This document shows, in pieces, positions 9,610 through 56,080 of a stretch of 64,000 nucleotides of DNA. Below the pieces are notes generated by a model. The model ran no database searches. It had not been told where the DNA came from and saw only the letters and a list, made by a program, of their open reading frames with translations. The stretch comes from an uncultured Myxococcaceae bacterium (GTDB lineage: Bacteria; Myxococcota_A; Polyangia; Polyangiales; Ga0077539), in the NCBI GenBank assembly GCA_964447205.1, contig CAYUSB010000004.1:51799-115798 (forward strand). Reading direction: 5' to 3'. The translations under genes were made by a program, and so were the position numbers. Each line of letters begins with the position of its first letter. Positions within the stretch are counted from its first letter, which is position 1.

Positions 9610-11442
9610 TTACTCGTCGTCGGTCGCGGCGTGGAGCGAGGTCACCGTCAGCGGGAACGAGCACTGGGTGAGCCGGGCCGGAGCGGCGAACCGGGCCCCC
9701 GCGATGACGCCCTCCAGACAGCGCAGGACCCCGTCGGGGACCGGTCCTCGGGCTTCGACCTGGGCAGGGGCCGAGGGGTCGGCCCCGGAGGTGGGGGCGA
9801 GCTGCCATTGCAGGGTCAGGACGAGGAGGGGGGTGTTTCCGCCGGAGTACGCGGCGAGGCACTGCTCGAAGGCCGACACGCTCTGGCGCACCCGGAGGTT
9901 GACCGGCCCGATCAGTCGGGGGTCACCGACCACGGTCCCGAAGCCGATCCCGACGTGGTAGCGGCCCGTCTGGCCCTGGGGCAAGGCGGGGTTGTCCGGG
10001 GGCAGGGGGGTCATGGTGACCGTGGGCACCCCCGGGGGCGGAGCGGTGGGGGCGACCGGGACCTGGGGCTGCGGAGGGATCTGGGGGGGAGCGTGGGGAG
10101 GCGGTGGGGCCTGGGCGATCGGGGTCATCGAGGGACCGCTCCGGCGAGGCCCCGCGGGTTCGTCGTCGGTCCCGACCACGAGGTAGTACGCGAGGGTGAG
10201 GGACCCGAGGCTCAGGACCACGGCCGCCACGAGGCAGCCCACGAGCCAGCGGCTCCCACGGCGGGCCGGAACCGGCGCGGGGGGCGGAGCCAGGAAGGGG
10301 TACTGCGGGCCCGACGGGGCCGCGGGGCCGGGCCACGAGATGGCCGTCGGGGGGGTGATGGGGACGTACGGAAGCATCGGCCCCACGGGGGTCACGGGGG
10401 CGTGATGCGGGGCGGGCTGGGTGGGGGCGTGTTGGGGCCCCGGGGCCGTGGCGGGACCGAACCCGGGGGCGGGGCCGAGCCCGGTGGCGGGGAGGGGGCC
10501 CGGGAGGGTGCTCGGGTGGGCGAGGGAAGGGTCCCACGACGGGTGGGCCGCGGCCTGGGCCCGCAGGAGCGACACGAGGCCCTGGGTGGCGGCGTTGGCC
10601 TCGGCGAAGCGCTCGGCCGGGTCGCGTACGACGCAGCGGTGAAACCACCCCTCGAAGCCCTGCGGGAGCCGGGCGAAGACCCCCGACTCCTGGGCCCGGA
10701 CCGACACCGAGGGCAGGGGCTCGACCAGGATCTCCCGCAGGAGCTGCATCATGGCCCCCCCGTCCTGGAGGCGGGCCGAGCGCCAGTAGTACTCGCCTGT
10801 CAGGAGGTGGAAGGCCATCAGCCCGAGGGCCCACACGTCGGTGGCCGGGCTCACCCCGCCCGACTCGGTCTGCTCGGGGGCCATCCACAGGGGCGACCCC
10901 ATGGCCTGGGTGCTCGACACCCGGCACTCCTGCACGACCTTGGCGATGCCAAAGTCAAGGAGCTTGACCGTAAACGGGACGTCCCTCCGCCGGGCCACGG
11001 CGAGGAAGACGTTTTCAGGCTTGAGGTCGCGGTGCACGATGCGGGCGGCGTGGGCGGCCCCGAGGGCGTGGCCGAGCTGCTCGTAGACGGCGGCCACCTC
11101 GGCGGGGCTCATCGACCCGCGGCGCTCGATCACGGCCCCGAGGTCTTCGCCCTTGAGCAGCTCCATCGCGAGCCACGGGGTCCCGGAGTCGTCGTCGATC
11201 CCGGCCCCTACCACCTCGACGATGTGGTCGGAGTCGAGGGTGGCCCCGATGCGGGCTTCTTGTTCGAAGCGGGCCCGGCTCTTGGCGTCGGCCACGAGTT
11301 GGGCGTGCATCAGCTTGAGGGCCCGGGGTTTGCCCGTGCTGAGCTGCTCGGCCACATAGACGGCCCCCATCCCTCCTTCGGCCAGGGGCTTGACGATGCG
11401 GTAATCCCGCGCGAACACGACCCCGGGGGCTAGTTGTAGCAT
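9610..11442 (-). CDS. eukaryotic-like Ser/Thr protein kinase with TM segment and C-terminal extracytoplasmic domain
   Basis: Start ATG 11442-11440 (MLQLAPGVVFARDYRIVKPLAEGGMGAVYVAEQ...). Hanks subdomains present: GxGxxG, VAIK-like ALK, HRDLKPEN, DFG, APE. A Pro-rich linker leads into TM helix WLVGCLVAAVVLSLGSLTLAYYLVV and a C-terminal domain. Confidence 0.85.
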   Translation of the reverse strand: MLQLAPGVVFARDYRIVKPLAEGGMGAVYVAEQLSTGKPRALKLMHAQLVADAKSRARFEQEARIGATLDSDHIVEVVGAGIDDDSGTPWLAMELLKGEDLGAVIERRGSMSPAEVAAVYEQLGHALGAAHAARIVHRDLKPENVFLAVARRRDVPFTVKLLDFGIAKVVQECRVSSTQAMGSPLWMAPEQTESGGVSPATDVWALGLMAFHLLTGEYYWRSARLQDGGAMMQLLREILVEPLPSVSVRAQESGVFARLPQGFEGWFHRCVVRDPAERFAEANAATQGLVSLLRAQAAAHPSWDPSLAHPSTLPGPLPATGLGPAPGFGPATAPGPQHAPTQPAPHHAPVTPVGPMLPYVPITPPTAISWPGPAAPSGPQYPFLAPPPAPVPARRGSRWLVGCLVAAVVLSLGSLTLAYYLVVGTDDEPAGPRRSGPSMTPIAQAPPPPHAPPQIPPQPQVPVAPTAPPPGVPTVTMTPLPPDNPALPQGQTGRYHVGIGFGTVVGDPRLIGPVNLRVRQSVSAFEQCLAAYSGGNTPLLVLTLQWQLAPTSGADPSAPAQVEARGPVPDGVLRCLEGVIAGARFAAPARLTQCSFPLTVTSLHAATDDE

Positions 11443-11563
11443 CGGCTCCGACCGGGGCACACTATGCCCCGGGGGCCCCCTGCGCAACCTCCGCGGCGGA
11501 GGGGGTGTGCGCAGAATGGGGGCGTGCGGCCCGCCCTGGGGTGCCGTAGAGTGGAGGCCCAAG

Positions 11564-13042
11564 ATGACCAACACCCAGCACGAAGCACCCGATCCGCGCG
11601 CCTCGCTGCGCGCTCCCTTCGCTCCCGGAGGTCCGTACGAGATCGACCGGGAGCGGGCCCGCAAGCTCCTGGAGGTGGCCCTCGGGCGGGGGGGCGACGC
11701 GGCCGACCTGTTCGCGGAGTTTGCCGTCGGAGCCGCCCTGGTCTTGGAGGAGGGCATCGTGAAGTCGGCCAGCCGGGGGGTCTCCCTCGGGGTCGGGATC
11801 CGCGTCCAGCGCGACTACGCCGCGGGCTACGCCTACACCGAAGACCTCACCTGGGAGGCCCTCGTGCGCTGCGCCGAGACCGCCGCCCAGATCGCCCACG
11901 CCTCGGCCCGGGCCGTGGTCGAGGTCACCGCGAGGACCCACCCCGAGCGCTACCTCGTGGAGTCCCCGAGCATCCTCGCCTCGGGCCTGGCCAAACGCGA
12001 CCTCCTCCTCGGGGCCGACCAGGCCGCTCGGGCCGCCGATCCGCGCGTCCACCGGGTCGAGGCGTCGCTGTCGGAGTCGTACCGGGAGGTCCTCATCGCC
12101 ACCAGCGACGGCAAGTTTCTGCGCGACGTCCAGCCCATGCTGCGCTTCGGGGTGCGGGCCATCGCCGAGGTCGGCGACCGTCGCCAGGCGGGCTCCTCGG
12201 GAGGCGGGGGCCGCACCGGGATGGAGTACTTCGACCGCCCCGGCAAGGGGGCCGACGACCACGCCCGCGAGGCCGTCCGGGTGGCCCTGGCCATGCTCGA
12301 GGCCCGCGAGGCCCCCGCCGGCGAGATGGAGGTGGTCCTGGCCCCGGGCGACAGCGGGATCCTCCTGCACGAGGCCGTGGGCCACGGCCTGGAGGCCGAC
12401 TTCAACCGCAAGGGGGTGAGCAACTACTCGGGCCGCGTGGGGTCGCCCGTGGCGAGCCCGCTCTGCACGGTGGTCGACCGGTCCGACCTCGACCACGAGC
12501 GAGGTTCGATCAACGTCGACGACGAGGGCAACACGGGCACCTCCACCACCCTCATCGAGGGGGGGATCCTGCGGGGGTACCTCCACGACACCTTCTCGGC
12601 CCGGCACTTCTCCCTCGGCCCCACGGGCAACGGACGCCGCGAGAGCTTCCGGTCGACCCCGCTGCCCCGGATGACCAACACCCTGCTCCTCAACGGCCCG
12701 CACAAGCCCGAGGAGATCGTGCGCTCGGTCAAGCGGGGCCTGTACGCCACCCGCTTCGGGGGGGGCCAGGTCGACATCGCCTCGGGCGATTTCGTCTTCT
12801 CCCTGAGCGAGGCCTACCTCATCGAGGACGGCAAGCTCACGACCCCCGTCAAGGACGTCAACCTCATCGGCAACGGCCCCGACGCCCTCGGCAAGGTGGT
12901 CATGCTCGGCGACGACATGGCCGTGAGCGACGGGATCTGGACCTGCGGCAAGGACGGCCAGAGCGTCCCGGTGGGGGTGGGGTGCCCGACCATCAAGATC
13001 TCGGCGATGACCGTAGGCGGCACCGCCGTACAGAAGGGCTGA
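11564..13042 (+). CDS. tldD: metalloprotease TldD (peptidase U62)
   Basis: ATG at 11564 (MTNTQHEAPD...) with GGAGG 8 nt upstream. Conserved TldD blocks HEAVGHGLEAD and ...GNGRRESF.... Confidence 0.9.
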   Translation: MTNTQHEAPDPRASLRAPFAPGGPYEIDRERARKLLEVALGRGGDAADLFAEFAVGAALVLEEGIVKSASRGVSLGVGIRVQRDYAAGYAYTEDLTWEALVRCAETAAQIAHASARAVVEVTARTHPERYLVESPSILASGLAKRDLLLGADQAARAADPRVHRVEASLSESYREVLIATSDGKFLRDVQPMLRFGVRAIAEVGDRRQAGSSGGGGRTGMEYFDRPGKGADDHAREAVRVALAMLEAREAPAGEMEVVLAPGDSGILLHEAVGHGLEADFNRKGVSNYSGRVGSPVASPLCTVVDRSDLDHERGSINVDDEGNTGTSTTLIEGGILRGYLHDTFSARHFSLGPTGNGRRESFRSTPLPRMTNTLLLNGPHKPEEIVRSVKRGLYATRFGGGQVDIASGDFVFSLSEAYLIEDGKLTTPVKDVNLIGNGPDALGKVVMLGDDMAVSDGIWTCGKDGQSVPVGVGCPTIKISAMTVGGTAVQKG

Positions 13043-13049
13043 CAGCGCG

Positions 13050-14399
13050 ATGGACCAGGACAGGCTTCAACAGATTTGTGACGACGTCCTCGGGCGCCTG
13101 CAGCGGGGCGGGGCGAGCGACGCCAAGGTCGTAGCCCGGGCTGGGCGCGACCTGTCGGTGCGGGTGCGTCTCAGCGAGGTCGAGCTCGTCGAGGAGGCGG
13201 CCACCCAATCGCTGGCGGTGCGGTGCTTCAAGGGCCAGCGGGTGGCCATGGCGAGCACGAGCGACCTCACCGCCGCGGGCCTCTCCCGGCTGGTCTCCGA
13301 CGCCCTCGAGCTCGCCGACCTGTCGCAAGACGACCCCTCCGCGGGATTGCCCGACCCGTCCGAGCTCACCCACACCTGGCCCGACCTCGGGCTCTACGAC
13401 CCGACCTGCGGCGACATCTCGGCCGCCGAGGCCGTGGTCCGGGCCCGGCGCTGCGAGGAGGCCTCGCGGGCCTTCGACCCCCGCATCACCAACTCCGAGG
13501 GCGGGGCCTTCGGGCGCACCGCCGGGGGCTTCGTGATGGCCACCTCGGGGGGCTTCCGCGGGGGCTACCAGGGCAGCTACGCCAGCGTCAGCGCCTCGCC
13601 CGTGGCCGCCGACGAGGGCGGCAAAAACCGCACGGCCAGCTACTGGTCGGCCCGGCGGTTTCTGTCGAAGCTCGAGTCCGAAGAGGCCGTCGGGCGCGAG
13701 GCCGGGCGGCGCACCGTGGCCCTCCTCGGGGCCCGCAAGGTTCCCACCCAGGAGGCCCCGGTGGTGTTCGACCCCGACGCGGCCCGGGCCCTCCTCGGGG
13801 CCTTCGCAGGCTGCATCACGGGCGACGCCGTGTACCGCCGGTCGAGCTACCTCCTCGACAAGATGGGCGAGTCGGTGGCCAGCGACCTCGTGTACATCAT
13901 CGACGACCCGCTCATCCCCGGGGCCCCGGGCTCGCGGCCCTTCGACGGCGACGGCCTCGCCACCCGGCGCAACGTGGTGGTGGAGGGAGGGGTCCTCAAG
14001 ACCTGGCTCCTCGACACGTACGGGGCCCGCAAGCTGGGGCTCCGCTCGACGGGCAACGCCGCGGGGGCCACGGGCACCGGGGCGGGGGTCAGCAATTTCT
14101 TCCTGGCCCCCGGGACCCAGACGCCCGCGGAGATCCTGCAGAGCACCCGGAAGGGGCTCTACGTGACGGGGATGATGGGGTTCGGGTTCAACGCCGTGAC
14201 GGGGGACTTCTCCCGCGGGGCCACCGGGTACTGGATCGAAGACGGGGCCCTGGCCTTCCCCGTGGCCGAGGTCACCATCAGCTTGAACTTCAAGGACTTG
14301 TTTGCTTCCATCGACGCGGTGGGCGACGACCTTGATATGAAGTCCTCGGTGGCCTCCCCGACAATTCGGGTGGCCCGGATGACCATCGCCGGCAGTTAA
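13050..14399 (+). CDS. pmbA: metalloprotease PmbA/TldE (peptidase U62)
   Basis: 449 aa. PmbA-type domain order, with a C-terminal ...GNAAGATGTGAGVSNFFLAPG... block. Directly follows tldD, as in the canonical TldD/TldE pair. Confidence 0.9.
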   Translation: MDQDRLQQICDDVLGRLQRGGASDAKVVARAGRDLSVRVRLSEVELVEEAATQSLAVRCFKGQRVAMASTSDLTAAGLSRLVSDALELADLSQDDPSAGLPDPSELTHTWPDLGLYDPTCGDISAAEAVVRARRCEEASRAFDPRITNSEGGAFGRTAGGFVMATSGGFRGGYQGSYASVSASPVAADEGGKNRTASYWSARRFLSKLESEEAVGREAGRRTVALLGARKVPTQEAPVVFDPDAARALLGAFAGCITGDAVYRRSSYLLDKMGESVASDLVYIIDDPLIPGAPGSRPFDGDGLATRRNVVVEGGVLKTWLLDTYGARKLGLRSTGNAAGATGTGAGVSNFFLAPGTQTPAEILQSTRKGLYVTGMMGFGFNAVTGDFSRGATGYWIEDGALAFPVAEVTISLNFKDLFASIDAVGDDLDMKSSVASPTIRVARMTIAGS

Positions 14400-18346: not shown

Positions 18347-19453
<1,107 letters not shown>

Positions 19454-19457
19454 TCGG

Positions 19458-20345
19458 GTGAACCCCTGGAAGCGACATTGGGACGCCCTGGTCTGCGTGA
19501 TCCTTCTGGCGATTCCGTTTGTATTTCTGCGCACGAGCACCCGCGACCCGACCCGCTACGACGAGCTCGACCGGGTGATGGCCCGGGTCATCGCGAAGGT
19601 CGAGTGGGTGGTGGCCCCAGTGGCCATGGGGGCCGCCGACCTGTGGTCGGACTACCTCTACCTCGTGCACGTCAAACGCGACAACGAGCGCCTCATCGCG
19701 GAGAACGCCCGCCTGCGCGCCGAGGCCGCTCGGCACCGGGCCGAGTTTGACGAAAACCGCCGGCTGCGTCGGCTCTTGCAGCTACGCACCGAGGTCCCCG
19801 GCGAGGTCTTCGCGGCCCAGGTGGTCATCAAGGACGTGTCGCCCTTCTTCCGGGTGACCCGCCTCGCGGTGATGGCCGAAGACCGCTCGCGGATCCGCCC
19901 GGGGATGCCCGTCCTGACCGACGAGGGATTGGTCGGGCAGGTGTCGCGGACCTTCGGGGAGTTCGCCGACGTTCTCTTGTCGGTCGACTCGCGGATGGCC
20001 ATCGACGTGATGGTCGAGCGCTCCGGGGCCCGGGGCATCGTACGCGGGACGGGCGAACGCGACCGCTACGCGGCCCGGGTGGAGTACCTCCAGCGCACCG
20101 ACGACGTCCGGGTGGGCGACGCCGTGGTGACCTCGGGCCTGGGGTGCCGTTACCCCGCGGGGGTCCTGGTGGGCCGGGTGGCCTCGGTGACCCGCCGCGA
20201 GTTTGGGATCTACCAGGAGGTCGAGGTGGCCCCGGCGGTCAATTTCTCGCGCCTGTCGGAGGTCTTGGTTCTGGCCACGGCCTCGCCCGACCGGCCCGGG
20301 TGCCGCGGGGGGGCCTCGCCCGTGCGGGTCCGGGGGCGGACGTAG
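19458..20345 (+). CDS. mreC: rod shape-determining protein MreC
   Basis: GTG at 19458, 4 nt after the mreB stop. N-terminal TM (ALVCVILLAIPFVFL), a coiled-coil, and C-terminal beta domains. Positioned between mreB and mreD. Confidence 0.85.
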   Translation: MNPWKRHWDALVCVILLAIPFVFLRTSTRDPTRYDELDRVMARVIAKVEWVVAPVAMGAADLWSDYLYLVHVKRDNERLIAENARLRAEAARHRAEFDENRRLRRLLQLRTEVPGEVFAAQVVIKDVSPFFRVTRLAVMAEDRSRIRPGMPVLTDEGLVGQVSRTFGEFADVLLSVDSRMAIDVMVERSGARGIVRGTGERDRYAARVEYLQRTDDVRVGDAVVTSGLGCRYPAGVLVGRVASVTRREFGIYQEVEVAPAVNFSRLSEVLVLATASPDRPGCRGGASPVRVRGRT

Positions 20346-20348
20346 CCG

Positions 20349-20858
20349 ATGCGCAACGTGATCCTGCTGGCCGTGGGCTTCGGGCTTTTGCTCTTGCAGG
20401 GGGTGATCGCCCGGGTGGTCCCGAGCGAGTACGTGGTCCCGTCGCTGGTGATGCCCATGGTCTTGACCATGAGCGTGGGGGAGTTCTCCCTCGTGCGGGG
20501 GATGAGCCTGAGTTTTGTCCTGGGGTACCTCACCGACGTAGGGGCCGGGGGCTCGATGGGCCTGTGGACCTTCACCCTGATGTCGATGTTTCTCCTGGCC
20601 CGGGTGGCGGGGCTCAAGCTCTTCCTGCACGGGGTGGTCTTCCAGATGCTCCTGAGTTTTCTCGCGATGGTGGCCGCGGGGCTGGAGATGATGGCCCTGG
20701 TCCTGGTGTTCGACCGGCGGCCCCTGGCCATGGGGTCGGCCCTGGGGGTGGTTCTGGCGCAAGGGGTGGCCACGGCGGTGTGCGCCCCGTGGGTGTTCGC
20801 CCTCGTGCGGGGGTTGCCCGGGGTGAGCACCCCGCGCCCGGACGAGGCCGCGGCGTGA
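20349..20858 (+). CDS. mreD: rod shape-determining protein MreD
   Basis: 169 aa polytopic membrane protein immediately after mreC. Confidence 0.75.
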   Translation: MRNVILLAVGFGLLLLQGVIARVVPSEYVVPSLVMPMVLTMSVGEFSLVRGMSLSFVLGYLTDVGAGGSMGLWTFTLMSMFLLARVAGLKLFLHGVVFQMLLSFLAMVAAGLEMMALVLVFDRRPLAMGSALGVVLAQGVATAVCAPWVFALVRGLPGVSTPRPDEAAA

Positions 20859-20893
20859 CCGGGCTCCGAGGATAGAGAGGGGACCGCGGGCCG

Positions 20894-22813
20894 ATGGAGA
20901 TCTCCCCCAAGCTCGGGCTGAGCGAGATGCGCGAGCGCATCCGGGTGATGGCCCTGGTCGCCATGGTGGGGGTGTCCCTCCTGGTGGGGCGGCTCTTCTA
21001 CGTGCAGGTCATCGACGCCGACCGGTGGATCCGGATGGCGGAGGACAACGTCCTGCGTCGGGTCAGCCTGCCGAGCACCCGGGGGCTCATCCGCGACACC
21101 CGGGGCCGGGTCGTGGCCACCAACCGCCCGAGCTACAACGTGTACGTCGTGCCGGGGATGTTTCGCCTCGAGAACTTCCCGCGCCTCGCCGAGACCCTGG
21201 GCCTGACCCGCGACGAGCGCGACCGTCTCGAGGCCCGGATCCGCGGCACGGAGGGCCCCCGGCGGTATCACGCCCTCCTCGCCCGCGGCGACATCAGCCG
21301 CGAGGCCCTGGCCCTCATCGAGACCCACCGGGCAGACTTCCCGGGCATCCAGGTGATCGCCGCCCCCGTGCGGCAGTATCCCTTCGGCGAGCTGGCCTCG
21401 CACGCCATCGGGTTTCTCAACGAGGTCAACGCCGACGACCTGCGCGAGTACGAGGGCCGCGACTACCGGGCCGGCGAGCGCATCGGCCGCTCGGGGATCG
21501 AGCGGGCCTGGGAGGCCGTCCTGCGCGGCCGCCGCGGGTGGGTCCGGGTCGAGCACGATGTCCGGGGGGCCCTCCTCGCGTCGCGCGACGCCCTGCAGCA
21601 CCTCGGGCCCGACCGCCGCCAGGACCCGATCCCTGGCCGCGACCTCGTGCTCACCCTGGACATGGAGCTGATGCGCTCGATCGACCGGGCCTTCCGGGGT
21701 CGCCCCTCAGGGGCCGCCGTGGTGGTGGACGTGCGCACCGGGCGGGTCCTGGCCCTGTACTCCAAGCCCAGCATCGACCCCAACCTCATCACCCTCGGGA
21801 TGCCCGCGGCCCTGAGCCGCGAGATCGACGAGAACCCCTACCGCCCTCGCATCGACAAGACCATCTTCGAGAGCTACTTCCCGGGGTCGACCTTCAAGCC
21901 CTTTACGGCCCTCGCGGGCCTCGGGGCCAACCTCATCGACGCCCGGACCCAGGCCAACTGCACGGGGCGACACATCCTCGGCCGGCGCGTGTTTCGCTGC
22001 AAACACGTGCACGGGCCGGTGGCCCTCCACCGGGCCATCGCCGAGTCGTGCAACGTGTACTTCTACCAGCTCGCCGAGGCCGTCACGATGGACCGCATCG
22101 CCCAGATGGCCTTCGAGTTTGGGATGGGGGCCCGCACGGGCATCGGGATCAACATGGAGACCCCGGGCTTCATCCCCACCCGGGCCTGGTACGCGCAAAA
22201 CTACCCCGGCCAGTGGCGCATCGGGCACACCCTCAACACGGCCATCGGCCAGGGCAACGTGCGGGTCACCGTGCTCCAGCTCGCCATGGCCTACGCGGCC
22301 CTCGCCAACGGCGGGACCCTCTTCGTCCCGCAGATCGTCGAGCGGGTGGAGTCCCCGGACGGCACGGTGGTGCAGCGGTTTCCGCCGACCGTACGGCGTC
22401 AGCTCGCGGTCGACCCGCGTCAGCTCGACATGATCCGACGGGCCCTCACCGACGTGGTGGCCGACCGGTTCGGGACGGCCCACGGGGCGCAGATCGCCGA
22501 GGTCGACGTGGCGGGAAAGACCGGGACGGCCCAGGTCTCGCGGATCATCCGCGACGCCGTCGACCCGCGGCGGGGGTGGACCTCGGCCCGCGATCACGCG
22601 TGGTTCGCGGGGTTTGCCCCGGCCCAGGCCCCGGAGATCGCCATCGTGGTGCTGGTCGAGCACGGAGGGTCGGGCGGTCATGAGGCCGCCCCCGTGGTGA
22701 CCCAGGTGGCCCGCGATTATTTCACCCGCATCCGCCCCGGGCCCCCCGTCCCCGCCGTGGAGGTGATGCGGGCGGCCGAGCAGCGCCGTCGCCGGGCCTC
22801 GGGGATCCGGTAA
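20894..22813 (+). CDS. mrdA: penicillin-binding protein 2 (peptidoglycan D,D-transpeptidase MrdA)
   Basis: N-terminal TM, PBP dimerisation domain, and transpeptidase motifs STFK (…PGSTFKPFT…), SxN and KTG(T) (…AGKTGTAQV…). Confidence 0.9.
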   Translation: MEISPKLGLSEMRERIRVMALVAMVGVSLLVGRLFYVQVIDADRWIRMAEDNVLRRVSLPSTRGLIRDTRGRVVATNRPSYNVYVVPGMFRLENFPRLAETLGLTRDERDRLEARIRGTEGPRRYHALLARGDISREALALIETHRADFPGIQVIAAPVRQYPFGELASHAIGFLNEVNADDLREYEGRDYRAGERIGRSGIERAWEAVLRGRRGWVRVEHDVRGALLASRDALQHLGPDRRQDPIPGRDLVLTLDMELMRSIDRAFRGRPSGAAVVVDVRTGRVLALYSKPSIDPNLITLGMPAALSREIDENPYRPRIDKTIFESYFPGSTFKPFTALAGLGANLIDARTQANCTGRHILGRRVFRCKHVHGPVALHRAIAESCNVYFYQLAEAVTMDRIAQMAFEFGMGARTGIGINMETPGFIPTRAWYAQNYPGQWRIGHTLNTAIGQGNVRVTVLQLAMAYAALANGGTLFVPQIVERVESPDGTVVQRFPPTVRRQLAVDPRQLDMIRRALTDVVADRFGTAHGAQIAEVDVAGKTGTAQVSRIIRDAVDPRRGWTSARDHAWFAGFAPAQAPEIAIVVLVEHGGSGGHEAAPVVTQVARDYFTRIRPGPPVPAVEVMRAAEQRRRRASGIR

Positions 22814-22831
22814 CGAGGAAGAGGCCGAACG

Positions 22832-23941
22832 ATGCCCAGGACCCTCCAGCCGCGGCTCCGCGACGAGTTTGATTGGCCCTTGTTTCTGCTGATCTCCGTG
22901 GTGGCCACCCTCGGGGTGGTCAACCTCTACTCCGCCACGAGCGCCCAGACCGGGGTGCGGAGCGAGCTCTACATCCAGCAGATCTACTGGCTCGGGGGCG
23001 GGGCCCTGGTGGCCTCCCTGGTGGCCATCGTGGACTACAAGTTCTACGAGCGGTACGCCTACGCGGGGTACGTGGCCAACCTCACGGCCCTGGTGCTGGT
23101 GTTCCTCGTGGGGGCCTCGATTCGTGGGACCCACCGGTGGATTCAGATCGGGAGCTTTCTGTTTCAACCCAGCGAGTTCATGAAGCTGGCCTTGATGATC
23201 GCGGTGGCCCGGTACATCTCCCGCGAACAGCGGCGCGAGGCCTGGACCCTGCGCGACCTGCTCGCCCCGGGGGCCCTGATCGGAGTGCCTCTCGTGCTGG
23301 TGATGGCCCAGCCCGACCTCGGGACGGCCCTGATCATTGGCCTCGTGTCGGTGAGCGTGCTCCTTCTCCAGCGCATCGCGTGGCGCTCCCTGGCCAAGCT
23401 CGTGGTGGGCGGGGTGGCGGGCTCTTTCCTCATGTGGGAGTACGGGCTCAAGGACTACCAGAAGGGGCGGTTGACGAGTTTTCTCGGGGGCGAGCGGGAC
23501 GTCCAGGGCAGCGGGTGGCAGGCCCATCAGAGCATGGTGGCCATCGGGTCGGGCCGCTGGACGGGCCAGGGCTTCATGCGGGGCACGCAGAACCAGCAGC
23601 ACTTTCTGCCCGACACCCACACCGACTTCCCCTTCCCGGTGTGGGCCCAGGAGCAAGGGCTGCTCGGGGCCGTGACGGTCCTCGTGCTGTTTCTCCTGCT
23701 GATCCTGTGGGGGCTGCGGGTGGCGGCCTTGTCCCGCGACCGCTTCGGGGCCGCCCTGGCCGTGGGGGTGGCCTCCCTCTTCTTCTGGCAGCTCATCTTC
23801 AACGTGGGGATGGTCACCCGGAGCCTGCCCGTGGTCGGGGTCACCCTCCCCTTCTTCTCGTACGGGGGCTCCAGCGTCCTCACCATTCTCATCGGGGTGG
23901 GCCTCCTGATGAACGTCTCCATGCGCAAATCGGCCTACTGA
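22832..23941 (+). CDS. rodA: SEDS-family peptidoglycan glycosyltransferase RodA
   Basis: 369 aa, 10-TM SEDS protein. Conserved …QPSEFMKLAL… and …FSYGGSS… blocks. Positioned after mrdA. Confidence 0.9.
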   Translation: MPRTLQPRLRDEFDWPLFLLISVVATLGVVNLYSATSAQTGVRSELYIQQIYWLGGGALVASLVAIVDYKFYERYAYAGYVANLTALVLVFLVGASIRGTHRWIQIGSFLFQPSEFMKLALMIAVARYISREQRREAWTLRDLLAPGALIGVPLVLVMAQPDLGTALIIGLVSVSVLLLQRIAWRSLAKLVVGGVAGSFLMWEYGLKDYQKGRLTSFLGGERDVQGSGWQAHQSMVAIGSGRWTGQGFMRGTQNQQHFLPDTHTDFPFPVWAQEQGLLGAVTVLVLFLLLILWGLRVAALSRDRFGAALAVGVASLFFWQLIFNVGMVTRSLPVVGVTLPFFSYGGSSVLTILIGVGLLMNVSMRKSAY

Positions 23942-27070: not shown

Positions 27071-28099
27071 ATGATGAAGGTTGAACCCAACAGTCTGCGC
27101 CAGTTTGGGGACGAGGGGTGGCTCCTCTGGCGACAGCGCGTGGGGGACACGCCCCAGGAGGGGCTCCTGTTGACGACCCGGGCCTGTGCCAGCCGGGAGT
27201 GTCCCTGTCGGTCGGTCACCGTGGATGCATGGTACGTCCCGGAGTCGCTCGCGGGCGTGTCTCGACGCAAGGATGGGAGGCTCTCGCTTCGGTTCCGGAG
27301 GGGGCACGAGCCGACGACGCGGTTCGCCCTGATGGCCTCGGTGGATATCGACACCGGCGCCGTGAGCCCGGTCGAATCTGCGGCACGGGGCGAACCCGAC
27401 CTCACGGCGCTGGCGTGGCTCCGCGAGGAGATGAACGGGGAGCTATTGGAGCGGCTCGCGCAGCGGTTTCTGCTGGCCAAGGGCTACCTGCCCAACGAGG
27501 AGCGCTGGCGCTCGGTGGACTGGTCGGAGTGGGAGCCCGGTCAACTCATCGGGTGGCGCGAGGTGGCCGACTTCGGGCGCGAGGACCTCTACGTCCTGGA
27601 TGGGCGGACCTATCTGGCCGACGACCTCTACTGCGTCGAACCGACGTGCCCCTGCGAGACCATCCACGTCGAGTTCTTCGAGCTCACCGGAGAAGGCCTC
27701 GCGGAGGAGCACGAGATCGGCGTCGTGGTCACGGACCTCCTCGGGTTCAAGCCATTGGTGGTCGAGCGCGACGCGGGCGATCCTGACCTCGTCGTGCGCC
27801 TCGGGGAGGCGTTCCGGCGGCGATACCTACGAGCGGGCATCCTCTCTGGCCGCAAGTCCAAGGTGAGGACGGTCGGGGCGGAGCTGTTGCGTACGCATCA
27901 GGAGCGCCAACGCGCTCCGTTGCCAGGGCCCGCACGCCCGATCCCTGCGCGTGCTGCGCCGACGCCCGGCCGGAACGACCCCTGTTTTTGCGGCTCGGGG
28001 AAGAAATTCAAGAAGTGCTGTCTGGGACGGGCATCCCCGTCGACGGACCTCACCCGGGGGTCCGCCCTGTCGCCGCGGACCGACCTCAGCGGCGGATGA
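27071..28099 (+). CDS. SEC-C motif (Zn-ribbon) domain protein, hypothetical
   Basis: C-terminal …GRNDPCFCGSGKKFKKCC… is a canonical SEC-C metal-binding motif. Two additional CxxxCPC motifs (…CASRECPCR…, …CVEPTCPCETIH…). Confidence 0.6.
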   Translation: MMKVEPNSLRQFGDEGWLLWRQRVGDTPQEGLLLTTRACASRECPCRSVTVDAWYVPESLAGVSRRKDGRLSLRFRRGHEPTTRFALMASVDIDTGAVSPVESAARGEPDLTALAWLREEMNGELLERLAQRFLLAKGYLPNEERWRSVDWSEWEPGQLIGWREVADFGREDLYVLDGRTYLADDLYCVEPTCPCETIHVEFFELTGEGLAEEHEIGVVVTDLLGFKPLVVERDAGDPDLVVRLGEAFRRRYLRAGILSGRKSKVRTVGAELLRTHQERQRAPLPGPARPIPARAAPTPGRNDPCFCGSGKKFKKCCLGRASPSTDLTRGSALSPRTDLSGG

Positions 28100-30815: not shown

Positions 30816-32390
30816 GTGAGCGCGATCGAGAAGCTGGCCCACCTCTGCGGCAGCACCGAGGCGGGGCGGGTGATGGTCGAGGGGGACGGCACGGTCCACC
30901 TCGCGGGCTGGCAGCAGTGGGGCGTGAGCCGCGACGGCGGGGCCACCTTCGCCCGCACCCGGGTGAACAAGGGCGTGCATTTCTTTGGCATGGCCCGGGG
31001 CCCCGATGGGCGTGTCGTGCTCTGCGGCATCCGCGGGATGATCGCCTCGTTCGACGACGATGGGGTCACCTGGACCTCGGTCACCGTCAAGGGAAAGCCC
31101 TCCCTGCGCGGCTGCCTCGCGACCCCGGAGGGGACGATGGTGGTGGGCGACGGGGTGATCCTCTTCCGCGCGGCAGGGACCGACCTGTGGGAGACCGTGC
31201 ACAAGGCCCACGGGGTGATGTTCTTCGGGGCTGCGCGCAGCGACGCGGGGGCCATCGTGGTGCTCGCGGCGGAGACCGTCCCAGGGACCCAGCCCTTCGA
31301 GCACAAGTTCACCTGGAGCGTGTGGGTGTCGGACGACGGGGGGCGGTGCTTCACCGCCGTCGACCCCGGGGCCCAGCGGGCCCTCGCCGTCCTCTCCGAC
31401 GGAACCCGCTTCTATCTCCCCGACGGCTACGACCGCATCCTGGCCTCGGACGACCAGGGGCGGAGCTGGTTCGTGATCGCTCACCCCGGGGCGGCGAAGA
31501 CCCAGGACCGACGCGACAATCGCATCGTGGCCTTCTACGCGCGGGGCGAGGTTCTCTATGCCGTCGACGCCACGGGCGCCGTGCGGCGCTCGGGCGACCG
31601 CGGGGTGCACTGGGAGACCGTGGGCGAGGTCGACGAGGTGCATTGCATCGACAGCGCACCCGACGGGACCCTGTTCCTGTCGGGCTACTATGCGGTGTGG
31701 AGGCTGCACGACCCCGCCCTCGTGCGCCCGTTGACGCCCGTGGCGCGGCCCGCTGCGACGCCCCCTGCGTCGGTCGCGGCAGCCCCGGAGGTGACGGGCA
31801 CGGCAGCCCTGATCGAGCGGCTCCTCGTCGCATGGAGGGCCGAGCGCCACCCCGCCCTCGCCGAGGCCATCGAGTCTCTCAGCGCGACCCTGCCGGTCCC
31901 TGGGACCGACCTGCGCACCCTCGACGGGCCGAGCCGGCAGGCGGGGTGGATGAAGCTGGCGAAGCAGGGAGGCCCCGCGGCGGTTCCGCATCTGCTGGAG
32001 ACCTTTCGGGCGGGGACCCTCGACGAGCTGAAGGATCGGGTGGGGTGGGTGGTCAAGCTCCCGGACGACCCGCGGGTGGCCTCGTTGGCCGCGTGTTTCG
32101 TCGAGGAGTGCGCGTATGGGTCGACGGGGTCGAAGCCCCTGTGGACGGCCCTCTGCGGGCGGTTGGTGGCCCTGCGGGATCCGCGCACCGTGCCAAGGGT
32201 GACGGCCGCCGCGACGCAGGGGGCCCCGGTGACGGGGGCGACGATGAAGGCATGGCTCGATGCGACGCTGCCGCGGGTGGCGAACCAGCTCGCGGCCGCG
32301 TGCGCGGGGGAGCCGGTGCTGACGCCCGCGGCGAAGGCGCTGCTCGACGAGGCGGCCGGAACGCCTTCTGCGCGTCGCGACCCGCCGTAG
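30816..32390 (+). CDS. BNR/Asp-box repeat beta-propeller protein (Ycf48/sialidase-like) with helical C-terminal domain
   Basis: GTG start at 30816, 3 nt after the CA stop. Repeated S/T-x-D-x-G-x-T-W/F Asp-boxes: SRDGGATFART, FDDDGVTWTSV, SDDGGRCFTAV, SDDQGRSWFV, SGDRGVHWETV. The first ~180 aa of track ORF 30279..32390 are out of frame over the CA gene. Confidence 0.55.
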   Translation: MSAIEKLAHLCGSTEAGRVMVEGDGTVHLAGWQQWGVSRDGGATFARTRVNKGVHFFGMARGPDGRVVLCGIRGMIASFDDDGVTWTSVTVKGKPSLRGCLATPEGTMVVGDGVILFRAAGTDLWETVHKAHGVMFFGAARSDAGAIVVLAAETVPGTQPFEHKFTWSVWVSDDGGRCFTAVDPGAQRALAVLSDGTRFYLPDGYDRILASDDQGRSWFVIAHPGAAKTQDRRDNRIVAFYARGEVLYAVDATGAVRRSGDRGVHWETVGEVDEVHCIDSAPDGTLFLSGYYAVWRLHDPALVRPLTPVARPAATPPASVAAAPEVTGTAALIERLLVAWRAERHPALAEAIESLSATLPVPGTDLRTLDGPSRQAGWMKLAKQGGPAAVPHLLETFRAGTLDELKDRVGWVVKLPDDPRVASLAACFVEECAYGSTGSKPLWTALCGRLVALRDPRTVPRVTAAATQGAPVTGATMKAWLDATLPRVANQLAAACAGEPVLTPAAKALLDEAAGTPSARRDPP

Positions 32391-32512
32391 CCCGTCGGGC
32401 AGGGCCATTCCTCCTCGCCGCTGCACCCAATACCCCCCGCACAGACCGGGTGCGCGGCCCCCCGCCGGGGTGCTACCGTCCCCGCCCCGTGAACGAGAGG
32501 GGACTGAAATCG

Positions 32513-35275
32513 ATGGAGACGCGTCAGAAGATTCCCGTGCCGCGGCGGTCGTTCCTGTGGTCGCTCAATGAGACCTCGGGCGAGATCCTGCTGCACGTCG
32601 GGCCCACGGAGTTTACCCCCAGCGCCAACGACCGGATCGTCCGGGCCAACGAGCGCGGAGGCTTCGAGGCCGCCCCCATGGAGGCCCGGCCCTTCGTCGT
32701 CGCCCGCGACGGCGAGTACGTCGTGCTCAGCAACCCCCTCAAGGGCGACACCACGGACGAGTACGCCAACGGGGCCTACCTCCCCGGCGGCAACAAGGAG
32801 AAGGAGCTTGCCCTCGGCACCACCCGCATGATCCCGGGGCCCTGCGCCTTCCCCATCTGGCCCGGGCAGAGCGCCGAGGTGCGCACCGCCCACAAGCTCG
32901 GGGCCAACCACTACCTCCTCGTGGAAGTCGTCGGGTCGCTTGACGAGAAGGCCCCGTACTACAAGCTGGTCATGGAGTCGGCGGGGCTCTCCAGCGCCGT
33001 CATCGACTCGGGCGAGTCGGCCGTAGGACCCGTGGCCCAACCCGTCGCAGCAAGCGCCGCCGTGGCCACCGCCGCCGTGCTCGTGAAGGGACAACGCATC
33101 GTCGTCCAGGGGCGGCACACCCCCCTCTTCATCCCCCCGTCGGGCATCGAAATCGTTCCACCCGTCGAGGAGATGGAGGCCCAACAGGCTGCCAAGGAGA
33201 CCGACACCGAGGCCATCGCGGCCCTCCCGCAGCCCCTCCAGCAGGAGCTCGCGAAGCTCATCGCCCAGGTGCGGCAGGGCATCTCGTCGCGGCAGTTTTC
33301 GACCCTCAAGAACGAGCTGCGGCACCGGCAGGACGTGGCCGTCGGGCAGCGGGCCGTCATGCTCACGGCCCTCGACGTGACCTACGAAGAGCGGGCCACC
33401 AAGAGCGACGCCCGACGCCGCGGGGGGAGCGTCGACCGCAGGGCCCCGACGGCCCCGATGGACCCGTACGCCCGGCGGGCGGTCCTGCTCAACCACAAGG
33501 AGTACTGCGTGCTCTTTGACGCCGACGGGAACCCCCGCATCGTACGCGGCCCGGCCCGGGTGTTTCCGGGGCCCCACGACACCTTCATGCAGCGCGGGTC
33601 GCGGCGCCGGGTGTACGACGCGTACGAGCTGGCCGAGCACCAGGCCCTGTGGATCCGGATCATCGCCCCGGTCTCGCGCGAGCGCCTCGGGCAACACCTC
33701 CCCCCGGGCATCGAGATCGACCGCGACCTGTACGAGCAGGGGCACGAGTTTATCGTGAAGGGTCGGCCGTCGGTCTTCTTCCCCTTCATCGAGGCCGAGG
33801 TGATCCACCCCGGGACCCACGACCCCCACGTCGGAAACGACCACGAGGGGGTGGTCCTGGAGGCCATCGGGATCGACCAGAAGAGCGGGATCTACGTCCG
33901 CGATCTGCGCACGGGCATGGTCAAGATGGTCCGCGGAGAGACCAGCTACCTCGTCGACCCGCGGTCCGAGGAGCACGTCCACCGGCGCGTCCCCCGCGAA
34001 CAGTGGAACCTCTGGATCGCCCACGCCGAGCCCCACAAGACCCTCGCCAAGGAGGAGGCCGTCACCACCCCGTGGGCCGTGTCGGTGACCATCCCCAACA
34101 ACGAGGCCTGCCTCATCTCGTCACGGCACGGACGGCGGGTGGAGGTGGGACCCAAGGTGGTTCTCCTGGAGTACGAGGAGACCCTCGGGCAGATGCGCCT
34201 GTCGAAGGGGCCCTCGAAGGACGGGCACGCCACCGTGGTCACCAGCTTCCTGCGCGTGAAGGGGGGCCGGGTGGCCGACACCTTCGAGCTGGAGAGCGCG
34301 GACTTTGTGAAGTTCAAGGTGCGCCTCGGGTTCGCCGGGCACTTCGAGGGCGAGGGGGCCCGGTGGTTCGAGGTCGAGGACCCCGTCAAGCTGCTTGCCG
34401 ATACGGTGCGGGCCCGCCTGCGGGAGGTCGCCCGAGGGGTCGGGGCCACGCGGCTCCTGTCGGAGTTTCCGGCCCTGGCTCGCAAGGCCCTCTTCGCCGA
34501 GACGGCCACCCTGCGCTTCGAGGAGAACGGGATGGTCATCGACCACATGGACGTCCTCGGGGTGTCGATCGCCGACGGGGCCCTGGCCGACCTCTTCCTC
34601 GGCACCCAACGCGAGGCCGTCAAGCTCGAGCTCAACGACCAGCAGGCCGCCCGGCGCCTCGTGTCGGCCCGCCACGCCGACGGGGTTCACGCCGAGGAGA
34701 ACCGCCTCGCCCGCGAGGCCGCCCGACGGGGGGCCGAGACCCGCATCGTCGAACACGAGCAGAGCCACGCCGTGGCCCTGCGGAGCCAGGTTCTGACGAG
34801 CGAGCGTCGGGCTGACGACGTCACCCGCACCCAGGACCTCCTCGCCCGCGAGCTTGATTTCGAGCTTCGGGCCGCGAAGGAGCGGGCCGAGTCCGAGGCC
34901 CAGCGTCGGCTGAAGGTTGCGGAGGCCGAGGCCGAGGCCCTGGCCGAGGGGTACCGGGTCGAGGAGGCCCACCTCGTGGCCGTGGCCGCGGTCGAGCAGC
35001 AGCGGGTGCGGGCCCTGGCCGAGGCCGACGCGATCAAACTCGGGGCCATCCAGCCCGAGCTCGTGGCCGCCCTGCACGGGGCCGCCGACTCCGAGGTCAT
35101 GAAGGCCGCCGCCAACAACATGAACCTCGTCTCCCTCCTCGGGGGTCGGTCGCCCTCCGAGATCCTCGGGCAGATCGTGCGGGGGACTCCCCTCGCGCGC
35201 ACCGTCGACAGCATGCGCGGCCGCGGACCGACCGAGGCCGTCGACGCCACGGTGGAGCCCGCGGACGAGGACTGA
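32513..35275 (+). CDS. major vault protein (MVP) homologue: MVP repeats + SPFH-like shoulder + cap-helix coiled coil
   Basis: ATG 32513 (METRQKIPVPRRSF...), 921 aa. Several blocks align to metazoan MVP:
- window SGIYVRDLRTGMVKMVRGETSYLVDPRSEEHVHRRVP vs MVP [27 protein letters not shown]...
- window EFIVKGRPSVFFPFIEAEV vs MVP RVVKGEKSFFLQPGE
- window TIPNNEACLISSRHGRRVEVGPKVVLLEYEETLGQMRLSKGPSK vs MVP [46 protein letters not shown]
The C-terminus (34650-35150) is a long Ala/Glu/Arg-rich alpha-helix (…RLKVAEAEAEALAEGYRVEEAHLVAVAAVEQQRVRALAEADAIKL…), as in the vault cap-helix. The first 1596 nt of track ORF 30917..35275 are an out-of-frame overlap of the BNR gene. Confidence 0.8.
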   Translation: METRQKIPVPRRSFLWSLNETSGEILLHVGPTEFTPSANDRIVRANERGGFEAAPMEARPFVVARDGEYVVLSNPLKGDTTDEYANGAYLPGGNKEKELALGTTRMIPGPCAFPIWPGQSAEVRTAHKLGANHYLLVEVVGSLDEKAPYYKLVMESAGLSSAVIDSGESAVGPVAQPVAASAAVATAAVLVKGQRIVVQGRHTPLFIPPSGIEIVPPVEEMEAQQAAKETDTEAIAALPQPLQQELAKLIAQVRQGISSRQFSTLKNELRHRQDVAVGQRAVMLTALDVTYEERATKSDARRRGGSVDRRAPTAPMDPYARRAVLLNHKEYCVLFDADGNPRIVRGPARVFPGPHDTFMQRGSRRRVYDAYELAEHQALWIRIIAPVSRERLGQHLPPGIEIDRDLYEQGHEFIVKGRPSVFFPFIEAEVIHPGTHDPHVGNDHEGVVLEAIGIDQKSGIYVRDLRTGMVKMVRGETSYLVDPRSEEHVHRRVPREQWNLWIAHAEPHKTLAKEEAVTTPWAVSVTIPNNEACLISSRHGRRVEVGPKVVLLEYEETLGQMRLSKGPSKDGHATVVTSFLRVKGGRVADTFELESADFVKFKVRLGFAGHFEGEGARWFEVEDPVKLLADTVRARLREVARGVGATRLLSEFPALARKALFAETATLRFEENGMVIDHMDVLGVSIADGALADLFLGTQREAVKLELNDQQAARRLVSARHADGVHAEENRLAREAARRGAETRIVEHEQSHAVALRSQVLTSERRADDVTRTQDLLARELDFELRAAKERAESEAQRRLKVAEAEAEALAEGYRVEEAHLVAVAAVEQQRVRALAEADAIKLGAIQPELVAALHGAADSEVMKAAANNMNLVSLLGGRSPSEILGQIVRGTPLARTVDSMRGRGPTEAVDATVEPADED

Positions 35276-54187: not shown

Positions 54188-54244
54188 GGGGCTCCCCCGC
54201 GCGGGGCGACAAACCCATCGGTCTACGATATGGTCCCGGGACCT

Positions 54245-56080
54245 ATGAATCGTCGCGCGCAGGCTGGGGGTTGGGTTGGTGTGGTGGCCGCGTTGGGGGC
54301 CCTGGGATGCGGGGGGGGTTCGGCCACCCCGGGGACAGACGGAGGCCCCGGGCCGGGGGCCGACGTGGCCGGGGCAGATACAGCCCCCGCGGTCGACACG
54401 GGCCCCGGGGTGTGTGTGCCCGACCGGGCGGCCTGGGACAGTACCATCCTCGGTCACGTCACCCGGCAGTGCGGGACCTGCCACGGGGCCTCCCCGCAGT
54501 ATGGTTCGCCCTACTCCTTGCTCGATTACGACGCCAACCTGACGGGCCCTGTGGGGCTGCGGCGGGTCGATCGGATCGCCGCCCGGCTCATGGCCGGCAC
54601 GATGCCCCCCGCGGGCACCCCGGCTCCCACCGACGCGGTCAACGCGGCCCTCGTGCAGTGGGCCACCTGCGGGGCCCAGACCCCGATGCCGGGGCAGGGG
54701 CTGCGGGCCTCGGCCCCCGTGTTCCGCTCGCCCGAGCGGAGCCCCGAAGGGCTCGCCCAGTTTGAGCTTCGGGCTGACAGCTTCCCCGTGCCCCCGACCT
54801 TGCGTGACCGCTACCAGTGTTACTCGTTCACGGCCCCGGTCGACGGCCCGCGCTTCATCAAGCGCTTCGAGATGATCGTCGACAACCCCGAGGTCTTGCA
54901 CCACCTCGTGCTCCTGCGCGACCCCCAGGGTACGGCCCCCCGCGAGCCCTTCCAATGCAACAGCATGCCCGAGGGCAGCGAGTACCTCTACGCGTGGGCC
55001 CCCGGGCAAAACGCCTTTGAGTTCCCTGAGGGGGGGCTGCGGGTCGAGCCCGGCCAGCGCTTCGTGGTGCAGTTTCACTACAACAACAGCGCCATGCGCG
55101 AAAACGTGGTCGACCGCTCGGGGGTCCGGCTCTATCACGGCCCCGTCGCAGGGACCGAGTACGGGATGGTGGCCATCGGGCCCGTGGGCTTCACCCTCCC
55201 GGCCCGCAGCGAGACCACGGTCGCGAGCGCGTGCACCCTGCGGGCGGGCAGCCGGATGCTCGCGGGGATGCCCCACATGCACGGGATCGGGACGGGCTTC
55301 GAGCAGACCGTACGGCGCCGGGCGGGGGGCACCGACCCCGTGGTGTCGCTCCAGGGATGGCGCTTCGAGACCGAGCTCTTCTACGAGCTCCCGGTGACCC
55401 TGGCCGAGGGCGACCGGCTCATCACCCGGTGTACGTTCAACAACCCCACGAGCAGCCCCGTGCGCTCGGGGTCGCGCACCACCGACGAGATGTGCTTCAA
55501 CTTCGCGTACGTCACCCCGCCGCCCCTGTTCCGCTTCTGCGACGAGGCCATCAACGTCGGCCCCGACCTCATGTACACCCCCGGGCGGTGCGCCGCCCCC
55601 GCCGCCACGCGCGCCCTCCCGCTGGCCCAGGGGCGGGTCATCGCCGACGATCCGCCCGCCCTCGTGGCCGGGCCCATCCCGTCGGGCCGCTGGGAGCTCG
55701 CGAGCGTCAACTACTACGTCGACACCATCATGACCGGGGCGGGGGTGCTCAACCTGTCCGAGTCGTCGATGTCCGGCCGCGGCCAGATGTGGATCGAGTC
55801 GGGGCGCCTGGTGGCCGACTTCAACACCTCCCTCGTGCTGGTGATCGGGGCCGGGATCCGGTTCTCGCGGGAGATCCCCCTGAGCTTCGCGGGCGACACC
55901 ACCCTCACCGGCACCGACATCGCCCTGCGGCCCACGTGTTCGGCCGAGGGCTCCACTGCCCCGATGGCCCTGCAGTACGGGCTCGGGGCAGGGGGCACCG
56001 AGCTCACCCTTGGGCTGCGGGCCCAGGAGACCGCCGGGGTGCGGATCACGCCGCGGTACACCTTCCGCCGGGCGGATTGA
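54245..56080 (+). CDS. lipoprotein with N-terminal CxxCH motif and copper type-II ascorbate-dependent monooxygenase (PHM/DBH)-like domain
   Basis: MNRRAQAGGWVGVVAALGALGCGG lipobox; …TRQCGTCHGASP… (CxxCH). PHM-like CuH site …NPEVLHHLVLL… (HH…), CuM site …AGMPHMHGIG… (H-x-H), and …TTDEMCFNFAYV… (Met ligand context). Confidence 0.55.
   Translation: MNRRAQAGGWVGVVAALGALGCGGGSATPGTDGGPGPGADVAGADTAPAVDTGPGVCVPDRAAWDSTILGHVTRQCGTCHGASPQYGSPYSLLDYDANLTGPVGLRRVDRIAARLMAGTMPPAGTPAPTDAVNAALVQWATCGAQTPMPGQGLRASAPVFRSPERSPEGLAQFELRADSFPVPPTLRDRYQCYSFTAPVDGPRFIKRFEMIVDNPEVLHHLVLLRDPQGTAPREPFQCNSMPEGSEYLYAWAPGQNAFEFPEGGLRVEPGQRFVVQFHYNNSAMRENVVDRSGVRLYHGPVAGTEYGMVAIGPVGFTLPARSETTVASACTLRAGSRMLAGMPHMHGIGTGFEQTVRRRAGGTDPVVSLQGWRFETELFYELPVTLAEGDRLITRCTFNNPTSSPVRSGSRTTDEMCFNFAYVTPPPLFRFCDEAINVGPDLMYTPGRCAAPAATRALPLAQGRVIADDPPALVAGPIPSGRWELASVNYYVDTIMTGAGVLNLSESSMSGRGQMWIESGRLVADFNTSLVLVIGAGIRFSREIPLSFAGDTTLTGTDIALRPTCSAEGSTAPMALQYGLGAGGTELTLGLRAQETAGVRITPRYTFRRAD

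Follow-up and report, generated by a model that had tools for sequence, protein, structure and literature searches.

A gene related to that of the eukaryotic major vault protein (MVP) is encoded at positions 32513 to 35275, on the forward strand, of a 64,000-nucleotide stretch of DNA from an uncultured Myxococcaceae bacterium (hereafter the window, meaning the whole stretch analysed; positions 51,799 to 115,798 of contig CAYUSB010000004.1, assembly GCA_964447205.1). The product almost certainly belongs to the MVP family, and by analogy with characterized relatives it is predicted to form a cytoplasmic, self-assembling, homo-oligomeric vault-like cage, a reading to which a probability of about 0.6 is assigned. 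In mammals two halves make up the closed cage of the vault (78-mer, D39), and for about 40 years both the function and the origin of vaults have remained under debate. Recent reviews hold that vaults are absent from prokaryotes or exclusively eukaryotic (PMC9778704, PMC11855390). An earlier note on this DNA had proposed a bacterial homologue of eukaryotic MVP, and this proposal is upheld by the present analysis, in which the best match by sequence as well as by fold was MVP and not flotillin or another SPFH protein.

When the single sequence was searched against the PDB with phmmer, only MVP chains were matched (E=6e-14), in one collinear stretch that paired residues 326-840 of the query with residues 276-792 of rat MVP, and a profile of 55 family sequences matched MVP in the same database at E=1.5e-43. 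Alignment of the family profile with rat MVP by HHalign, for which the rat reference sequence was checked against PDB 4HL8, spanned residues 1-914 of the query and 1-861 of the rat protein (probability 100%, E=1.3e-49, 781 aligned columns, 24% identity). The multi-block similarity across the repeats and the shoulder that had been noticed earlier is borne out by both the collinear phmmer match and the HHalign alignment. Moreover, the Pfam model MVP_shoulder (PF11978) was matched over residues 587-688 with 36.5 bits, against a cutoff of 25. NCBIfam models gave no match to the protein, and it was not recognised as a member of a defence system or phage family by PADLOC and PHROGs.

The fold points in the same direction. 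An AlphaFold2 (AF2) model of the full-length protein, built on the 55-sequence alignment, has a mean predicted local distance difference test score (pLDDT) of 70.7 and displays, in order, beta repeats over residues 1-216 that are broken by two low-confidence loops, a set of helices, a linker, further repeats, the shoulder, and a long helix followed by short C-terminal helices. In a Foldseek search of the PDB the top 12 matches of this model were all MVP (E-values from 8e-32 to 6e-24), and an MVP fragment comprising repeats R1-R7 was matched at 6e-11, whereas SPFH cages reached only ~1e-7. Tandem beta repeats flank the central insert of the model on both sides and MVP is its best fold match, so that neither of the findings named in the earlier note as contradicting homology (flotillin or SPFH proteins as best matches, or a model lacking tandem beta repeats) was obtained.

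The reading frame at 32513-35275 (+) is translated without interruption into 920 amino acids plus a stop; the length of 921 amino acids given in the earlier note is corrected to 920 plus the stop codon. A Shine-Dalgarno-like GAGAGGGGA, read directly from the sequence, is located at 32495-32503 (+), 9 nt upstream of the ATG at 32513. Third-position GC across the gene amounts to 0.86-0.97 (at least 0.90 in all 300-nt windows except one) and second-position GC to 0.41-0.52, in a window with a GC content of ~72% throughout; this pattern is what coding DNA shows in a genome with 72% GC. A longer in-frame open reading frame (ORF) starting at 30917 was rejected as an artefact, because the third-position GC signal upstream of 32390 falls in another frame and belongs to a separate upstream gene that ends at 32390. 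Comparison with the closest relative (locus L001, 94% identical) yielded a dN/dS of 0.063. Judged from coding third-position GC, homology to MVP and dN/dS, the gene is a real, expressed-type gene that is under strong purifying selection. Scans for promoters and terminators yielded nothing informative in DNA so rich in GC.

As expected for a member of the family, beta repeats of the MVP type are arrayed in tandem ahead of the shoulder. The first 216 residues (32513-33160, +) form three beta repeats that resemble MVP R1, R2 and, weakly, R3. When a profile of this N-terminal region was searched against the PDB, the seven best matches were all MVP, but only at E ~0.01, the region being too diverged for HMMER. 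By HHalign, residues 7-122 align with rat residues 8-106 (R1-R2) with a score of 36.8, which was reached by none of 100 shuffled targets (14.7+/-3.0), and residues 188-218 align weakly but collinearly with rat residues 135-163 (R3). In addition, an internal comparison detected homology between residues 56-130 and the R6-like repeat of the same protein (probability 87.5%, E=3.5e-6). Within the first repeat A38, D40, R41 and V43 are invariant and lie opposite rat D39-N40-E41-R42-V43 (ANDRIV versus DNERVL), a stretch containing waist residues that are named in PMC12280208.

The position of R4-R5 is occupied by an insert (residues 217-320; 33161-33472, +) which, in the AF2 model, consists of four helices between residues 223 and 299 (pLDDT 75-89) and an Arg-rich disordered linker at residues 300-320 (pLDDT below 50). 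In the global HHalign alignment the insert faces rat residues 165-271 without real similarity. No other named domain is as poorly conserved (0.35-0.42), and only the tail of residues 901-920 has lower values. The P0284-type subfamily and the phage ORFs described below lack the insert, and in the P0121-type sister subfamily it is long and Pro/Ala-rich. The subsequent four repeats (residues 321-582; 33473-34258, +) match MVP R6-R9, are collinear with rat residues 275-519 and constitute the most conserved part of the protein (0.67-0.81); the sub-cutoff Pfam matches to Vault_4 and Vault_3 lie here, at residues 451-491 and 541-572, respectively. Between R7 and R8 the 55-sequence alignment reveals a PHVGNDH motif (residues 438-444; 33824-33844, +), in which G441 and N442 never vary and D443 and H444 hardly do, and which falls in a gap of rat MVP and is found only in subfamilies of the window type. 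The loop, which AF2 models with low confidence, is rich in His, Asp and Asn and might therefore bind a metal or serve as an interface.

The SPFH-like shoulder (residues 583-688; 34259-34576, +), which is assigned by the Pfam match and by alignment with the rat shoulder, is an alpha/beta domain in the model with a pLDDT of ~90. It is followed directly and without interruption by the cap-helix equivalent (residues 689-855; 34577-35077, +), a helix of 167 residues according to DSSP on the AF2 model, which is rich in Ala, Glu, Arg and Leu (A36 E23 R21 L20; A+E+R = 48%), aligns with the rat cap-helix to about residue 802, and has a pLDDT of 75-86 over most of its length and below 70 in the final ~25 residues. 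The earlier note had the protein end in an Ala/Glu/Arg-rich helix of about 150 residues; the helix is real, but ~65 residues lie beyond it. These comprise a conserved C-terminal module (residues 856-900; 35078-35212, +) with the motif NMNLVSLLGG (residues 869-878; 35117-35146), and then a variable acidic tail. N869, M870, N871, L872, L875 and G878 of the motif are invariant in the 55 sequences, and the motif is conserved in both insert-bearing subfamilies. A suspected resemblance of NMNLVSLLGG and AIQPxLVxAL to rat PEMQVKLLQSLGLKSTLI proved unsupported. The single sequence of the module matched nothing in the PDB at E<=10, a 22-sequence profile gave chance matches only, and alignment with the verified rat C-terminus by HHalign was no better than with shuffles, 19 of 100 of which reached the score.

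Compared with rat and human MVP (PDB 4V60, 4HL8, 9BW5), the bacterial protein, known here from sequence, shares the collinear R1/R2(/R3) and R6-R9 repeats, the shoulder and a cap-helix of ~160 residues, and neither of the two has a membrane anchor. It differs in its overall identity of 24%, in the ~100-residue helical/Arg-rich insert that stands for R4-R5, in the added PHVGNDH loop, and in a conserved NMNLVSLLGG module with no detectable counterpart in the MVP cap-ring. Furthermore, no vault RNA was seen in the 64-kb window around the bacterial gene, and no vPARP or TEP1 among its neighbours in 15 orthologue loci.

MVP alone self-assembles into vaults and SPFH-plus-helix modules form cages (PMC13100048, PMC12280208); moreover, every solved protein in which an SPFH domain is followed by a long helix forms a ring, dome or cage (PMC13100048). 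Taken together, the self-assembly of MVP and the domes of all solved SPFH-plus-helix proteins make a homo-oligomeric cage the most likely form of this protein. Many copies would pack side by side, as they do in MVP and in its structurally characterized SPFH relatives, with the shoulder and the long helices closing a dome and the beta repeats supplying the thin wall of a barrel, so that a hollow cage would result. Two such domes might then meet at their N-termini to give a closed vault-like particle. In eukaryotic vaults the N-terminal repeat bears the contact surface of the halves, and because the R1-like N-terminus is conserved and alignable in the bacterial protein, a closed, two-halved particle is plausible; the probability that a true closed vault-like compartment is formed is placed well below even. 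The helical/Arg-rich insert would alter the mid-barrel wall, and it is here that any contacts with cargo or nucleic acid peculiar to the lineage are most plausibly made. A fuller proposal, in which a closed cytoplasmic vault would hold cargo such as RNA by means of a lumen-facing R4-R5 substitute and, taken with the abundant paralogous subfamily and the megaphage copies, would make vaults an ancient prokaryotic invention, is put forward tentatively, as a possibility of the same low order.

Several observations weigh against the vault-like cage. Only about seven repeats are recognisable, versus nine (R1-R9) in metazoan MVP, and R4-R5 are replaced by an unrelated insert, as a consequence of which the geometry may differ from that of the vault. 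The Pfam outcome was divided: MVP_shoulder is above its cutoff, PF01505 and PF17794 gave no match to the protein, and Vault_3 (26.7 bits; cutoff 28.8) and Vault_4 (19.6 bits; cutoff 22.9) both remained just under theirs. For the C-terminal motif, neither the MVP cap-ring nor any other PDB entry gave a significant match. The structural evidence consists of a single-chain prediction, with a predicted template modelling score (pTM) of 0.36 for the monomer and loops of low confidence, and a model of the N-terminal part alone (residues 1-335, 14 sequences) had a pLDDT of 49.5 and was not used for fold searching. Across the 15 orthologue loci no neighbour was conserved beyond close relatives and no vPARP/TEP1-like gene was present, and an Rfam search of the 64-kb window returned 0 families at the gathering score, Vault RNA included. 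To our knowledge, vault RNA, vPARP/PARP4 and TEP1 are also absent from many eukaryotic vaults.

The NAD+/ADP-ribose pocket of human MVP belongs to the same set of adverse observations. This pocket is formed by thirteen residues (R437, R504, K506, R507, P508, H509, R511, L517, D521, F522, W545, P565 and K573), nine of which could be mapped by the HHalign and HMMER alignments, and approximately three of these nine are kept: K506 as K569 and L517 as L580, both conserved family-wide, and H509 as H572 in this protein only. The basic "keyhole loop" is not conserved (R504P, R507D, R511T, D521G and F522R), and P508 of the pocket is changed as well (P508G). The pocket is a feature of the human protein and not of the whole MVP family, and since it is largely unconserved, no claim is made on nucleotide binding.

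Instead of a free cage, the protein could form a single dome, or half-cage, on the cytoplasmic membrane that organises or shields a membrane patch, in the manner of HflK/C, flotillin, stomatin and QmcA. The SPFH/Band-7 cage proteins (HflK/C, QmcA, flotillin, prohibitin, stomatin, erlin) do share with it an SPFH fold followed by a long helix, and they were the second-best structural matches. Canonical SPFH proteins are, in contrast, anchored N-terminal of the SPFH domain, form half-cages and do not have MVP repeats, whereas the protein described here carries ~580 residues of MVP-type repeats on the anchor side. A search for a membrane anchor or signal peptide found no hydrophobic N-terminus. 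Canonical anchors lie ahead of the SPFH domain (PMC13100048), and in that part the protein shows no transmembrane (TM) helix, hairpin or lipidation motif. The most hydrophobic 19-residue segment (residues 173-191, Kyte-Doolittle 1.63) is an Ala-rich loop, which is not conserved and carries charges in homologues, and the protein is considered cytoplasmic because signal peptide and TM segment are both lacking. Pfam Band_7 (PF01145), a model that is passed by related MVP-like proteins of bacteria and phages, did not match it at E<=1, and the conserved R1-like N-terminus argues for N-to-N contact. A membrane-bound dome is accordingly regarded as rather unlikely, and still less probable is that no cage is formed at all and that MVP-type domains are reused in an elongated protein with a structural or scaffolding role, for example one akin to TolA or involved in gliding motility, as speculated by Sokolskyi 2019 (10.1101/872010). 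That in-silico work noted that the helix resembles TolA and that there is a correlation with gliding bacteria, and the R4-R5 replacement and the novel C-terminal motif do indicate a diverged architecture. The TolA similarity is likely compositional, given that the helix is rich in Ala, Glu and Arg; TolA models were not matched among the Pfam results at E<=1, nor was any other non-MVP family apart from an insignificant match to DUF6959, and the protein has no TM segment. Motility or Tol-Pal genes did not adjoin the gene in any of the 15 loci, and all structurally characterized proteins with an SPFH domain and then a long helix are rings or cages (PMC13100048).

An artefactual origin, whether by eukaryotic contamination, very recent transfer from a eukaryote or decay into a pseudogene, might be suspected given that MVP is classically eukaryotic and that eukaryote-to-bacterium transfer was weighed for the cyanobacterial copies by Daly et al. 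2013 (PMC3762200). This explanation is effectively refuted. The 72% GC content and the third-position GC pattern are the same as those of the bacterial neighbours (mreC, PBP2, rodA, TldD/PmbA and an OPT transporter), downstream synteny is kept in related metagenome-assembled genomes (MAGs), the frame is intact with the low dN/dS given above, and the modest identity to rat MVP stands against 57-94% identity to hundreds of Myxococcota orthologues.

These orthologues form a subfamily of their own, which bears the insert and numbers 407 clusters at 90% identity. Full-length homologues, numbering more than 400, come from Myxococcota MAGs and from isolates such as Nannocystis pusilla and Polyangium spp.; Labilithrix, Sandaracinaceae and Bradymonadia were seen solely as source names in the subfamily search. 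The family as a whole comprises 841 clusters at 50% identity with E<=1e-3, including 378 with E<=1e-30. A sister Myxococcota subfamily without insert (Nannocystaceae, Kofleriaceae; P0284, P0400-P0518) is represented by at least 6,559 clusters at 90% identity; its P0284-type members are ~830-890 residues long, lack both the helical insert and PHVGNDH, and have an insertion between R8 and R9. The taxonomic breadth rests on source names and literature, the single-sequence contig search having returned 12 close loci. The existence of this second, larger subfamily implies that Myxococcota carry paralogous MVP lineages and fits the two copies reported in Plesiocystis pacifica. The statement in the earlier note that prokaryotic MVP-like genes are rare is contradicted by these cluster counts.

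Many such proteins are named "major vault protein" by JGI and "MVP shoulder domain-containing protein" in UniRef, and homologues have been reported before. Myxobacterial, Bacteroidetes, Herpetosiphon and cyanobacterial homologues were listed by Daly et al. 2013, who also modelled fold and docking (PMC3762200), homologues in Myxococcales, Cytophagales and Oscillatoriales were described by Sokolskyi 2019 (10.1101/872010), and MVP-like proteins were extended to gut phages by Santos et al. 2023 (10.1101/2023.11.10.566534). Individual examples include Corallococcus coralloides H8MNI3, Plesiocystis pacifica A6FXM1 and A6FXE2, and Enhygromyxa salina A0A0C2D5V5, as well as proteins of Saprospira, Microscilla and Herpetosiphon (PMC3762200, 10.1101/872010). 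The bacterial homologues of the 2013 and 2019 reports, several of which are from the same phylum, resemble the present protein in their ~25% identity to eukaryotic MVP, their shoulder and Vault repeats, and their purely in-silico description; the window gene is placed in the insert-bearing subfamily, distinct from the larger insert-less one. In the literature searched no experimental study of any bacterial MVP homologue was found, so that the description of these genes as uncharacterised in the earlier note holds for experiments but overlooks the in-silico reports. Myxobacterial MVP homologues are a known kind, and what this locus adds is anatomy, chiefly the replacement of R4-R5 by a helical/basic insert.

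MVP-like proteins were also encountered in viral sequences. The uncultured megaphage LR756501.1 (735 kb) encodes one of 809 amino acids (L015:3938-6367) and the likewise uncultured megaphage LR756500.1 (462 kb) one of 827 amino acids (L016:3932-6415), both with matches to MVP_shoulder (95-100 bits), Vault_3 and Band_7. They are 25-32% identical to the window protein over residues 21-716 and share with it MVP_shoulder, Vault_3 and the N-terminal repeats; they differ in being shorter, in lacking the insert and PHVGNDH, in an insertion between R8 and R9, in passing Band_7, and in their viral context. The gene in LR756500.1 is neighboured by an RNA ligase, an HD plus AAA_33 kinase-like protein, DFP, and a gene with a Macro (ADP-ribose-binding) domain, the last of which is suggestive because human vault shoulders bind ADP-ribose. 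In BFVD, the giant-virus protein A0A3G5A4K1 (Harvfovirus sp., 802 amino acids, annotated as "Prohibitin domain-containing protein") aligned with the AF2 model of the window protein over ~1,000 columns with a Foldseek E of 4e-11, and it may be MVP-like and not plain SPFH.

Immediately upstream of the MVP-like gene the window encodes an OPT transporter, a beta-carbonic anhydrase and a weak BNR-like protein, and immediately downstream, in convergent orientation, a PQQ-propeller protein, a PMT_2-type glycosyltransferase and a membrane protein. The 122-nt upstream gap and the convergent downstream gene suggest a monocistronic unit, and the gene is present as a single copy within the window. Farther off are a Ser/Thr kinase, a cluster of mreC, PBP2 (mrdA) and rodA and a pair of TldD/PmbA metallopeptidases, the latter two groups at 19395-23941 (+) and 11405-14399 (+), respectively; these housekeeping clusters confirm a bacterial chromosomal setting, and the locus is that of an ordinary myxobacterial chromosome. 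A tRNA search of the window found none, and a plasmid search gave no match to the MVP-like protein.

The 15 loci compared for conserved partners are all from Myxococcota (Polyangiales, Polyangiaceae, Nannocystaceae and unclassified Myxococcales MAGs). Ser/Thr kinases recurred in six of them upon all-against-all ORF clustering but are ubiquitous in Myxococcota, and were rejected as partners, as was a VWA protein 17 kb upstream, the presence of which was treated as a coincidence since it is neither conserved nor adjacent. Probably coincidental, too, is a DUF4062 gene located ~10 kb upstream of the Nannocystis pusilla copy (L002:1-198, JAIRAU010000047.1) and unseen in the other loci; DUF4062 is a TIR-like NADase domain, as in the vault protein TEP1. 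Elsewhere in the window, an ORF at 54188-56080 (+) contains Cu2_monooxygen and Cu2_monoox_C, both halves of the PHM/DBH-like fold of copper type II ascorbate-dependent monooxygenases, enzymes that are typically eukaryotic. A 342-amino-acid protein encoded at 27071-28099 (+) has a C-terminal SEC-C motif and matched the PADLOC candidate model PDC-S12 with 32 bits, a match that involves the SEC-C motif only and is probably not meaningful.

Standing alone and strongly conserved, and with orthologues in Nannocystis pusilla and Polyangium spp., of which cultured strains exist, the myxobacterial MVP homologue offers a simple system for questions about vaults, two of which become addressable: whether the vault cage is older than eukaryotes, and what role a minimal vault plays without PARP4, TEP1 or vault RNA. 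The natural variant in which R4-R5 are replaced is, moreover, informative for the engineering of vault nanoparticles. The abundance of the family in Myxococcota and its presence in megaphages sharpen the question of its origin. If a closed bacterial vault is indeed formed, eukaryotes could have inherited their vaults from a Myxococcota-like partner, and the vault would not be a eukaryotic hallmark.

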